Shown here: in pieces, positions 35,930 through 41,935 of the stretch
Position numbering within the stretch: the stretch's first letter is position 1
Layout: the number at the start of each line of letters is the position of its first letter
Origin: an uncultured Methylococcaceae bacterium
GTDB lineage: Bacteria > Pseudomonadota > Gammaproteobacteria > Methylococcales > Methylococcaceae
Assembly (NCBI GenBank): GCA_903934875.1
Contig: CAIZPP010000177.1
Span: forward strand, 17,344 to 81,343
Direction of reading: 5' to 3'
Length of the DNA stretch: 64,000 nucleotides
Translations under genes and position numbers: made by a program
Notes under the pieces: model-generated
Databases searched by the model: none
The model's input: only the letters and a program-made list of their open reading frames with translations
Told to the model about the DNA's origin: nothing

Positions 35930-36006
35930 TCCGGCGGAGGCAGGGGCTACGCCCCTGCACCCCAAAAAAGCCAAAAGCGCAAAGGGACAAAAAGCAAAGA
36001 GCAAAG
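35930..36006 (-). other. Conserved 3' flank of DGR target 1: GC hairpin (gcaggggct-acg-cccctgc) plus an A/T-rich tract, duplicated downstream of target 2 (38718-38815)
   Basis: About 90 nt after each target stop codon are conserved between the two loci. Confidence 0.6.
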
Positions 36007-37047
36007 TTACAGAGCCCTGGCAAGACGAAAGCCCCGGAAGTCGTACGCTCCACCTGGCCTGAACCAGTTGCGGATGGCCGAACGCAGGTACTGAGGGAGG
36101 CCGTCCCACGAACCCCCGCGAACCCCCCGGTTGCAATCCGCGGCCCCTCCCCAAGCCGAACCGTCGGTGGGCGCGCCTTGGTAACTGTCGTGCCAACAGT
36201 CCGCCACCCATTCCCAGGCATTGCCCAGCATGTCATACAAGCCGAAATGGTTGGGCCGGAAACTGGCAACAGGGGCGGTATACATGAAACCATCCGAACA
36301 TTTGGCGTTCCGGGCATCTCCATCCAATTTAGTCAGTTCGGCATCGCCTAGATTGGCAAACCGACAACTCTGTTCGGCATCCTCGCCCCAATAATACGGG
36401 GTCACTGTCCCTGCCCGCGCCGCGTATTCCCATTCCGCCTCGGTAGGCAGGCGGTAGGCAGCACCGGTGCGCCGGCTTAGCCAGACGGCATACGCTTGGG
36501 CATCCTGCCAGGCAACGCAGACCACCGGGTGGGTGTCGTCCTGCGGAAAGCCGGGTTTATCCCAAAAAGCCTGTTTGTCCTGCTTCCAGGCTTTGGTCTT
36601 GGCATCGTAAACATAACATCCGCCGGTTTTCTCGGCGACAGTTTGGTAGTGTTCCTCCTGCACAAAGCGGCGGAACTGTCCTCGGGTGATTTCACAACGG
36701 CTGATGGCAAAGGGCTTGGTGATGCTTACCCAATGCTGCGGCCCTTCGGTGGCAATACGCTCCGCCTCGCTGGCCGGCGAGCCCATTAAAAACTGCCCCG
36801 GCGGTATCAACACCAGCGTGGGGGCCAACTCATTGCCGGGTTCTTGGCAGGCATTGGGTTCCCGCTGTGGCAGTTTGCCGGGGTCTGCGGCTTGCAGGGT
36901 ATAGGCGGGAGGCGCGGAAGGCCGGGTTAAAATAGGCTTTTTCGCCCAAGCGGGGGACAATGAGACTAAGCAGGCCAACAAGGCAATAATGGCTATGAGG
37001 AAATGGCGGCGGCCCCGGAACTCTAGACCGGCACCGCCGCCCGCCAA
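36007..37047 (-). CDS. DGR target protein 1: secreted formylglycine-generating-enzyme (FGE/SUMF1)-fold, C-type-lectin-like protein with a C-terminal variable repeat
   Basis: FGE-sulfatase-domain motifs (RLPTEAEWEYAARAG, GNAWEWVADCWHDSY, RGGSW...GFRLARAL). A signal peptide (...RRHFLIAIIALLACLVSLSPAWA) follows a probable TTG start. Variable repeat 1 = 36019-36135. Confidence 0.75.
   Translation of the reverse strand: MAGGGAGLEFRGRRHFLIAIIALLACLVSLSPAWAKKPILTRPSAPPAYTLQAADPGKLPQREPNACQEPGNELAPTLVLIPPGQFLMGSPASEAERIATEGPQHWVSITKPFAISRCEITRGQFRRFVQEEHYQTVAEKTGGCYVYDAKTKAWKQDKQAFWDKPGFPQDDTHPVVCVAWQDAQAYAVWLSRRTGAAYRLPTEAEWEYAARAGTVTPYYWGEDAEQSCRFANLGDAELTKLDGDARNAKCSDGFMYTAPVASFRPNHFGLYDMLGNAWEWVADCWHDSYQGAPTDGSAWGGAADCNRGVRGGSWDGLPQYLRSAIRNWFRPGGAYDFRGFRLARAL
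36019..36135 (-). repeat. DGR variable repeat 1
   Basis: About 112-nt alignment with the template repeat at 37166-37277. The 19 differences all lie at template T positions (adenine on the coding strand). Confidence 0.85.
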
Positions 37048-41800: not shown

Positions 41801-41935
41801 AAAGCGCAGCGCCAGCAAATCATGCACCGTCTGCCAAGCGTCCGGGCCACGCGGCATGTCGTGCCGGCGCAGCAGCTCATCTAGCGCGGCCAGATCAAGC
41901 AGGGCATGCTGGCCGCTTGGAATTGCCTTAGGCAT
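38816..41935 (-). CDS. DGR target protein 2: 1039-aa membrane protein with a C-terminal FGE/CLec-fold domain carrying variable repeat 2
   Basis: Predicted transmembrane helices near aa 150-170 and 235-255; the central region has no recognised domain. The C-terminal 280 aa are FGE-sulfatase-like (RLPSEAEWEYAARAG...GNVWEWVADCWHDSY...RGVRGGSW...GFRLARAL). Variable repeat 2 = 38828-38945. Confidence 0.8.
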   Translation of the reverse strand: MPKAIPSGQHALLDLAALDELLRRHDMPRGPDAWQTVHDLLALRFQQGRIPGPDKPEELARLIGPLLCRGPEEQARFPHIVAQWLSGTDTLSTSGQFSTFDSTPWQRWQNRLRRFDRRQSIGLLALLLLLAGLWATLALNPPADPIVAPPPLPTIATQPATVPAGQPPAVKVDDWAPPNRLPEPVRLPPAWEQARGRVGLALRLLPCLLALLWLYRCYLGRPKILETDTPDGDEVARDLDFANPAQPLYGGGQSEQALNSLGRVSYGESRRLHIAKTVQATARQAGYFVPCHRLCLERPVYLILVHSQHIHDQQALLGEELVRRFREARLTTESYRFLDSPSQLIPWPLAEGGPLSLGELALRHDCARLIIISEGRILFHPATGQPRLWLDDFAAWPQRVWLGAGEVDALDARLLLLKGFLYLPLASLSLADLAVYLSADEAWPVSALRESEAQDPLPDSIADYPQRWLKPSPPSDIPLATLARELRAYLHEDGWALLQTLVAFPECQWKLTQAVDYLCFEGQQAGLAEAREARLTRLLKLPWFTHAYFPRYMRIHLLRQAGDAERLHIRDTWEALFSRQTGQGGITVLEPLRKLVKDLLRTDRAGALGDPIFVQILRGKRLDFWQFRLPQILAGIFLQGRNRWDLRPAVWAVVFAGLASWGGGGWWETQGKDWLVRQWQTQLAHENGRWLVSIDYLGQTQALALALQASLVPQGFRVAALRPVTSAQADSISYPPAAEAAAQRLAKTLRHVGYGVDARLLPMPESTGLRVSLAHSYQARAAFNDLLWNKQAAQPQTFQDPLQYGGLGPVMVSIPTGQFSMGSPTTENGRYPDEGPQHSVTIPRAFAIGRDEVTFDDYDRYAQASGKKLPADNGWGRGTRPVINVSWQDAQDYAAWLSRQTGQTYRLPSEAEWEYAARAGTTTAYWWGDALGKNHANGGGGGSVWDGKQTAPVGSFAANPWGLHDTAGNVWEWVADCWHDSYQGAPTDGSAWGGAANCDRGVRGGSWINFPQILRSAFRNWYRPDDSNYDQGFRLARAL
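38828..38945 (-). repeat. DGR variable repeat 2
   Basis: Differs from the template repeat at about 16 positions, all template T (coding-strand A) except one G/A. Confidence 0.85.

Follow-up and report, generated by a model that had tools for sequence, protein, structure and literature searches.

A chromosomal diversity-generating retroelement with two lectin-fold targets in a MoxR-ATPase/protease cassette of a Methylococcales bacterium

A computational analysis of a 64,000-nucleotide (nt) stretch of contig CAIZPP010000177.1 from an uncultured Methylococcaceae bacterium (this whole stretch is called the window) revealed a complete chromosomal diversity-generating retroelement (DGR), of which every part is present and intact. 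The genes recG, spoT, fabF, pgi, argH, tmk and holB show the window to be chromosomal. The product of a neighbouring gene falls into one 90%-identity cluster with proteins of Candidatus Methylumidiphilus MAGs, and the host is most likely a methanotroph of the Methylococcales. Very probably, the element has the order avd, reverse transcriptase (RT), template repeat (TR), with one target gene on each side, and is embedded in a MoxR-ATPase/protease cassette of the conflict-system type in a Methylococcales bacterium. The cassette comprises seven genes on one strand within less than 10 kb (Table 1). The locus adds a member to a type of DGR that is already known from comparative genomics.

Template and variable repeats

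A repeat search of the window resulted in the identification of three direct copies of a 114-nt core on the minus strand, which align with no gaps. The sequence-only reading of this DNA had reported three copies of roughly 115 nt; the three copies stand, while the coordinates assigned to them deviate by 2 nt at one end and extend 5-8 nt too far at the other. Two copies are, as that reading had recognized, the 3' ends of genes encoding FGE/CLec-fold proteins, i.e., the variable repeats (VRs) VR_A in the short and VR_B in the long target, and in both genes the VR forms the C-terminal end of the protein. The third copy is the TR, which carries 31 A per 114 nt on the coding (minus) strand. All 19 differences between TR and VR_A are located at TR adenines (hypergeometric P = 7e-14), just as had been counted before. 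For VR_B the aligned count is 14 differences instead of the 16 reported earlier, 13 of them at TR adenines (hypergeometric P = 6e-8). The sole exception, described previously as a G/A difference on the plus strand, is a C>T change at TR position 37247. Computed by alignment, the enrichment at adenines is extreme for both repeats.

The copies are delimited by two invariant blocks. The GC-rich block of 25 nt on the 5' side, which had been singled out as conserved, is found exactly three times in the window compared to 0.00 occurrences expected by chance, and the 17-nt block on the 3' side is found three times compared to 0.31 expected. The 3' block shared by TR and VRs (17-18 nt) reads GGGCTTTCGTCTTGCCAG. 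Outside the 114-nt core there is no homology between TR and VRs, and the TR is identical in every assembly examined.

Translated in the target frame, the TR encodes RGVRGGSWNNNPQNLRSANRNRNRPDETNNNQGFRLA, in agreement with the peptide deduced earlier. Its adenines are spread over 19 codons, ten of which are AAC, and nearly all of them occupy codon positions 1 and 2. Adenine substitution in these codons never yields a stop codon, and the coding repertoire computed from the TR codons amounts to approximately 10^16 peptides per VR. The TR had been thought to lack an intact open reading frame (ORF). This does not hold: the RT ORF extends 81 nt into the TR (37197-37277), likewise by 81 nt in the related element L091 and by 57 nt in L001, and the ATG of the publicly annotated 397-amino acid (aa) ORF of the short target sits inside it (37200).

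Reverse transcriptase, Avd and class assignment

The nearest solved relative of the RT is the brt of Bordetella phage BPP-1 (8ub7_A, E 5e-42; the structure's sequence is a 100% match to brt), and a group II intron RT is found only at E 1e-21. The RT motifs LGNLTSQ (37757-37737) and RYVDDLVLL (37664-37638) are present, the latter containing YVDD and belonging to the LRYVDDLVLL by which the gene beside the TR had been recognized. The group II RT/maturase model TIGR04416 scores 118.7 bits on the RT, far under its cut-off of 300. An Rfam scan of the whole window at gathering thresholds gave no match, hence no group II intron or retron RNA, and a tRNA scan of the whole window found none. The affinity of the RT is therefore of the DGR type. 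The gene between long target and RT is an avd gene, as had been proposed; its product scores 88.3 bits with NF033474, above the curated NCBI cut-off of 80 for DGR-Avd. The DGR signature claimed by the sequence-only reading is thus carried by the DGR-type RT, Avd, the adenine-specific differences between TR and VRs and the CLec targets, to which a hairpin in the VR flanks and a structured spacer RNA are added below.

The order avd-RT-TR corresponds to architecture B2 of Wu et al. 2018 (PMC5758913), and two targets are present in approximately 13% of all DGRs (Wu et al. 2018, PMC5758913). Moreover, a short CLec-only target combined with a long target beside a MoxR-like ATPase is a common layout of DGRs with RTs of clade 5A (Doré et al. 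2024, PMC10907252). Contrary to what had been assumed, a DGR of this lineage that serves two targets, including a long membrane protein, is therefore nothing unusual.

Table 1. Features of the DGR and its cassette (window coordinates), with residues at the variable positions of the template and of three VR_A alleles
Feature	Coordinates	Strand	Description
VR_A 3' flank	35940..36016	-	CTTTG heptad-repeat tract, hairpin GCAGGGGC-GTA-GCCCCTGC (35958-35940)
Short DGR target, 346 aa from TTG 37047	36007..37047	-	Signal peptide + CLec-only FGE domain; Pfam FGE-sulfatase E 3e-67
VR_A, variable repeat at 3' end of short target	36017..36130 (read 36130-36017)	-	19/19 differences at template adenines
Predicted DGR RNA	37057..37299	-	Upstream duplex arm, TR, structured spacer of ~107 nt; common fold in window, L091, L001
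TR, template repeat	37164..37277 (read 37277-37164)	-	31 adenines, 10 AAC codons
DGR reverse transcriptase, 385 aa	37197..38354	-	Pfam RVT_1; nearest solved relative 8ub7_A
avd accessory gene, 117 aa	38364..38717	-	NCBIfam NF033474 DivGenRetAVD; Pfam bAvd
VR_B 3' flank	38741..38825	-	Last codons and stop, degenerate CTTTG heptad repeats, GC hairpin GCAGGGGC-TTA-GCCCCTGC (38759-38741), T-run
Long DGR target, 1039 aa	38816..41935	-	Predicted N-terminal helical bundle, TM1, Pro-rich loop, TM2, vWA-like and helical domains, TM3, small periplasmic domain, FGE/CLec (TM, transmembrane segment)
VR_B, variable repeat at 3' end of long target	38826..38939 (read 38939-38826)	-	14 differences from TR, 13 at template adenines
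MoxR-like AAA+ ATPase, 365 aa	42259..43356	-	Pfam AAA_5 and AAA
Trypsin-like serine protease, 505 aa	43356..44873	-	Conserved C-terminal domain of ~300 aa; Pfam Trypsin_2
Trypco2 (trypsin-co-occurring domain 2), 115 aa	45094..45441	-	Pfam PF19631 E 2.8e-24
TR (template), VR residues			NNN..N....N.NRN..DETNNNQ
Window VR_A residues			DGL..Y....I.NWF..GGAYDFR
P0157 VR_A residues			NYI..L....Y.GRS..DDSDYIQ
P0160 VR_A residues			GSS..N....I.DGV..GGAGSDR

Variation between strains

The repeats were read directly in six metagenome assemblies, the two shortest contigs of which end inside the TR and show VR_B only. TR, VR_A and VR_B are identical in all six, because all of them are almost clonal with the window. 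In a seventh assembly, L172, only 2 of 11,227 positions deviate from the window. The assembly L080 has 14 substitutions elsewhere and none in a VR; ten of the 14 lie within 70 nt of the holB C-terminal domain (47004-47073), show no specificity for adenines and resemble a patch of recombination.

Two strain variants, P0157 and P0160, are included in the 90%-identity protein cluster to which the short target belongs; they are known at the level of the protein and of the gene coordinates (Table 1). Between window and P0157, 15 of 22 differences fall into the 19 adenine-bearing codons (P = 1e-18), and between window and P0160 10 of 16 (P = 2e-10). The P0157 contig encodes an Avd identical to that of the window. 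VR_A was therefore rewritten, mainly in the adenine-bearing codons, between strains that are approximately 98% identical elsewhere. The presence of different VR_A sequences in near-identical strains argues for recent activity of the DGR on one of its targets at least. For VR_B and the long target no strain variants were found in the protein collection; a search that used the last 556 aa of the long target as query was dominated by generic FGE proteins and missed even the cluster of the query itself.

Predicted DGR RNA and flanks of the variable repeats

Downstream of the TR, a non-coding segment of approximately 107 nt is strongly conserved in the sister elements L091 (labelled Methylococcus sp.) and L001, the RTs of which show 74% and 65% identity to that of the window, respectively. 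For RNA folding, 40 nt upstream of the TR were joined to 115 nt downstream, following Handa et al., and the joined sequences of window, L091 and L001 all adopt one fold. It consists of a 13-bp long-range duplex, in which 37299-37287 pairs with 37097-37085, a 7-bp stem, a 10-bp stem capped by a CAAG tetraloop (37141-37118) and a 9-bp stem-loop followed by CCAAAGA. The common fold comprises 46 pairs, with 94% of the cells paired compared to 38-48% when the partners are slid, and 10 of the 46 pairs are changed on both sides compared to 0-1 in the slid controls; this covariation is drawn from three sequences, the same three from which the structure was derived. Among approximately 165 other RT loci, only L001 and L091 share the spacer element. 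Handa et al. described an Avd-binding stem-loop and cPRT-stop elements in the DGR RNA, and the elements predicted here match them.

The VRs are followed by a different sequence. A CTTTG tract, i.e., five to six degenerate heptads of the form N2-3 CTTTG, stands after every VR of the lineage and is usually followed by a hairpin GCAGGGGC-nnn-GCCCCTGC, whereas the TRs have the spacer instead. A regular expression for this non-coding tract has two matches in the window (38760-38825 and 35959-36016, minus strand), each of which lies immediately behind a VR. Among other DGR-RT loci, 1.5 Mb in total, the tract is confined to this sub-family, where it lies at VR ends, except for one intragenic stray in L086. 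It is kept where the targets are only 40% identical (L001) and also in loci without an RT. The tract may thus serve as the target-recognition element of the lineage. The hairpin after VR_B is the best terminator-like site of the region and scores as an intrinsic terminator. A simple promoter scan found no sigma-70-like site.

Target proteins

The short target likely starts at TTG 37047 and not at the ATG of the 397-aa ORF. An AAGAG Shine-Dalgarno-like motif is located 9 nt upstream of this TTG. The 346-aa protein has a signal peptide, RGRRHFLIAIIALLACLVSLSPAWA, and a CLec domain and little else, suggesting that it is secreted or lipid-anchored.

For the long target a structural model with a mean pLDDT of 80 was obtained. 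In the model, residues 7-86 form a helical bundle, which is followed by TM1 (117-139), a disordered proline-rich loop and TM2 (189-219). An alpha/beta domain (approximately 250-440) and a helical domain (459-640) come next, then a long helix with the third hydrophobic segment, a second alpha/beta domain (691-773) and finally the CLec domain. In 41 homologues, each of the three hydrophobic segments is conserved. According to this conservation and the distribution of charges, the N-terminus and residues 250-640 are cytoplasmic and the CLec domain is periplasmic. The long target is accordingly modeled as crossing the membrane three times with a cytoplasmic vWA-like domain, and the variable CLec domains of both targets are predicted to face the periplasm. 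No evident DxSxS MIDAS motif is present in the vWA-like domain. A Pfam search at E <= 10 with the cytoplasmic domain, the N-terminal bundle and the C-terminus of the protease gave no vWA, iSTAND or VMAP match; its sole result was a sub-threshold LytR_C match at residues 688-808 of the long target.

Cassette genes and conflict-system context

Upstream of the long target, the cassette encodes a MoxR-like ATPase, a trypsin-like protease and a Trypco2 protein. Both Walker motifs of the ATPase (A, GEPGCGKS; B, VVLIDEID) are intact, and no other cassette gene is as well conserved among relatives (69-80% identity). Trypco2 orthologues hold the same position in L086, L087, L090 and L091. In the protease the triad H31, D73 and S155 is invariant in five orthologues, and the C-terminal domain gives a collinear hhalign alignment with a TIR-iSTAND protein (E 1.2e-4, probability 55%); the Pfam iSTAND model PF19995 does not match. 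This domain is probably an inactive STAND (iSTAND) domain. A profile of the protease orthologues found no match among PDB sequences, the AF2 model of the protease, built from four sequences, was unusable (mean pLDDT 40), and hhalign detected no adaptor domain common to long target and protease. Provided that Pfam includes VMAP models, a VMAP-C domain is absent, as trypsin is the only Pfam family found at E <= 10 in the 505-aa protein and its orthologues. Within the C-terminal domain, a 27-nt tandem repeat (43846-43980) encodes approximately three copies of an IKKALTEEA-like unit of nine residues, which is absent from all four of four orthologues.

PADLOC recognized no known defense system. A 99-aa ORF immediately upstream of Trypco2 (45445-45744, minus strand) was considered as a component and rejected as probably foreign to the system, since it has no homologue in related loci; it gave no Pfam, NCBIfam or PADLOC match either.

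The wider family of the long target was collected with its N-terminal 790 residues, and 1,866 cluster representatives were obtained. Of 41 sampled members, 29 end in FGE and the rest in WD40 or CarboxypepD_reg, and more than half of the top family representatives lack the FGE signature. Three distant members without FGE are all encoded directly downstream of an AAA_5 ATPase, which is preceded by a TIR-iSTAND protein at two of these three loci. Kaur et al. 2020 described ternary MoxR-vWA systems whose vWA component has an N-terminal helical domain, N-terminal TM segments in approximately 28% of cases and a TM segment before envelope-facing domains, with FGS as the commonest C-terminal domain. 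The third component of these systems consists of a TIR domain or a trypsin/caspase peptidase ahead of an inactive STAND domain (Kaur et al. 2020). The three-TM topology with a cytoplasmic vWA-like domain, together with the gene context, suggests that the long target corresponds to the vWA component of such an iSTAND-type ternary system.

Loss of the retroelement from related cassettes

Orthologous cassettes without a DGR were found in several related loci (L086:1-9000, L087:7000-15600, L088 and L090:3700-9600), the long targets of which are 62-75% identical to that of the window. L086 and L087/88 keep Trypco2, protease, ATPase and both targets, while Avd, RT and TR are absent nearby. L090 keeps Trypco2, protease, ATPase and the long target and is without Avd, RT, TR and the short target. 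If the two frozen VRs of such a locus are compared with each other, 14 of 15 (L086) and 13 of 13 (L087) differences fall at adenine positions of the window's TR.

The allele P0160 (sample ERZ1426849, contig of 2412 nt) seems to show such a loss within the strain cluster. Here, Avd residues 1-34 are fused in frame to the short target at HFLIAIIALL, and the contig keeps the 98 nt that separate the stop codon of the long target from the start of avd. Taken from the protein sequence and the gene coordinates, this would imply a natural deletion of approximately 1.6 kb (window approximately 38615 to 37006), which removed RT, TR, spacer and the greater part of avd and was apparently joined at a CCGCCGC microhomology.

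The existence of orthologous cassettes without an RT shows that the four-gene core is a stable unit. The DGR may therefore be an add-on that was repeatedly lost from this core, or else it may be supplied in trans.

Several small features were observed around the module. Short REP/MITE-like repeats are located at 42000-42066, 35753-35802 and 33343-33410, and direct copies of one element bracket the DGR module. The gap between ATPase and long target measures 323 nt in the window compared to 9-63 nt in relatives. A palindromic element beyond the short target (35830-35935) is related to a 128-nt repeat, of which four to five tandem copies occupy the RT-less gap in L087.

Comparison with known systems

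The arrangement in which a DGR target is the membrane sensor of a ternary conflict system with ATPase and protease was already described by comparative genomics. In the layout of the locus, the closest resemblance is to the clade 5A loci of Doré et al. 2024, e.g., DGR 8 and DGR 9 of Thiohalocapsa PB-PSB1. There, as in the window, the gene of a MoxR-like ATPase lies directly upstream of that of a long target whose N-terminus is unannotated, a short target with nothing but the CLec domain is present as well, and genes for Trypco2 and a trypsin-like protease are adjacent; DGR 9 also has a target with transmembrane segments and a protease without a canonical VMAP domain. The N-terminal extension was described as unannotated and 'in place of a vWA domain' (Doré et al. 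2024, PMC10907252), whereas in the window it is resolved as a predicted three-TM vWA-like module tied to iSTAND systems. In addition, the host is most likely a Methylococcales methanotroph and not a known multicellular bacterium.

With the iSTAND MoxR-vWA systems of Kaur et al. 2020 the cassette has in common a MoxR ATPase without terminal extensions and a partner with a predicted N-terminal helical domain, N-terminal TM segments, a TM segment before the envelope domains and a variable C-terminus, most commonly FGS; moreover, distant members of the long-target family adjoin TIR-iSTAND genes. It differs in that the Pfam iSTAND and vWA models miss the window's proteins, that a DxSxS MIDAS motif is not evident and that a Trypco2 gene is present, which is according to Kaur et al. 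a trait of trypsin-containing VMAP systems.

The BPP-1 DGR (mtd-avd-TR-brt) has a homologous RT (E 5e-42) and Avd, adenine-specific transfer from TR to VR, a VR at the C-terminus of a CLec fold, a GC hairpin behind this VR and, following the TR, a structured spacer with stem-loop and stop-duplex. Unlike this element, the window's DGR has the order avd-RT-TR, so that the spacer sits between TR and second target, it is chromosomal and not phage-borne, it serves two cellular envelope targets and no tail fiber, and its VR flanks contain the lineage-specific CTTTG-repeat tract. TvpA of Treponema denticola, an FGE-type DGR variable protein (PDB 2y3c), has neither a TM/vWA-like N-terminal module nor ATPase/protease partners.

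Proposed mechanism and alternative readings

Following the Bordetella paradigm, a complex of RT and Avd would bind an RNA of approximately 240 nt, consisting of upstream arm, TR and structured spacer, and would cis-prime cDNA synthesis from the spacer. The TR would be copied with random misincorporation opposite adenines, and the cDNA would take the place of the VR in one or the other target; the 3' block GGGCTTTCGTCTTGCCAG, together with the VR-specific CTTTG tract and GC hairpin, would direct this step. For signaling and defense a mechanism can be inferred from the cassette: binding of a ligand outside of the cell might be relayed via the vWA-like domain and the MoxR-like ATPase to the cytoplasmic protease (probable iSTAND) and Trypco2, and the output would be, according to published proposals for such cassettes, abortive infection or cell death.

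That the locus is no DGR at all, but a group II intron, a retron or a defense-type RT lying by chance beside paralogous FGE genes and a gene fragment, has next to no probability. The RT does match group II, retron and DRT models, all of them below threshold, but 32 of 33 differences between TR and VRs are at adenines, Avd exceeds its curated cut-off, bRT is the nearest structural relative, Rfam finds no intron or retron RNA in the window, and the sister elements show the same adenine signature, by which this explanation is already refuted. It is more plausible, though still improbable, that the DGR is a fossil, i.e., that the targets were diversified in the past and the element is now silent in this strain with its VRs frozen. 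This would fit the identity of the VRs in all readable assemblies, including L080 despite its substitutions elsewhere, the one non-adenine mismatch of VR_B, the absence of a long-target variant from the protein collection and the repeated loss of avd-RT-TR from loci that keep targets (L086, L087/88, L090 and the P0160 allele). Against it, RT, Avd, TR and spacer are intact and do not differ between assemblies, the catalytic motifs of the RT are present, and entirely different VR_A sequences are found in strains approximately 98% identical outside the VR, in one case beside an identical Avd; moreover, minority variants stay hidden in consensus assemblies.

A further alternative accepts the DGR and disputes the immune role of its targets. 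The CLec domains may bind surfaces, partner cells or changing ligands of the environment, be it for nutrient capture, adhesion or signaling in the envelope, and the module of ATPase and protease would then be a partner for regulation or quality control and no cell-death effector. Both CLec domains are predicted to lie outside the cytoplasm, PADLOC recognizes no defense system, the host is an apparent lake methanotroph related to Ca. Methylumidiphilus and not a known multicellular bacterium, and the defense role of the ternary systems is a prediction only. Yet, the linkage of Trypco2, trypsin protease and ATPase is kept in all relatives, the wider long-target family is paired with TIR-iSTAND proteins, and both domain combinations are typical of conflict systems according to Kaur et al. 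and Doré et al., so that this alternative is considered rather unlikely. As a tentative proposal, it is conceivable that the long target is an outside-in transmembrane antigen receptor and that the short target, for which the same TR is the source of diversity, is its counterpart in secreted or lipid-anchored form, that the module with its 1,866 clusters serves interchangeable CLec, WD40, CarboxypepD_reg and TPR ectodomains, and that the DGR is an optional add-on which is gained and lost by lineages. If this were true, long and short target would loosely resemble the membrane-bound and secreted forms of one receptor repertoire.

DGR-diversified MoxR/STAND sensors, described by comparative genomics, were proposed as a bacterial analogue of anticipatory immune receptors. 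To this, the locus adds strain-level diversification, natural alleles of DGR loss, RNA and DNA cis-elements of the lineage and a three-TM topology, which is concrete in that it would place the variable domain outside and the vWA-like domain and the protease inside. It thereby links the 'N-terminal extension without predicted domains' of Doré et al. to the iSTAND vWA component of Kaur et al. The knowledge of how DGRs work is unchanged by the locus; as it brings natural controls, i.e., the VR_A variants of sister strains, the in-frame deletion allele without RT and TR and the orthologous cassettes without a DGR, it is a reasonable candidate for reconstitution.

Further features of the window

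A KAP-family P-loop NTPase and, with a 4-nt overlap, an 864-aa protein with NACHT and leucine-rich repeats are encoded at 17742-21682 on the plus strand, a second, unrelated STAND-type conflict-like pair approximately 17 kb from the DGR. Upstream of argH, the segment 33447-33576 contains three tandem 35-nt repeats (GGGAGTGCAAGGCCTGCCTTGCCTTAGATGACACC) and, behind them, a perfect inverted copy of 26 nt.

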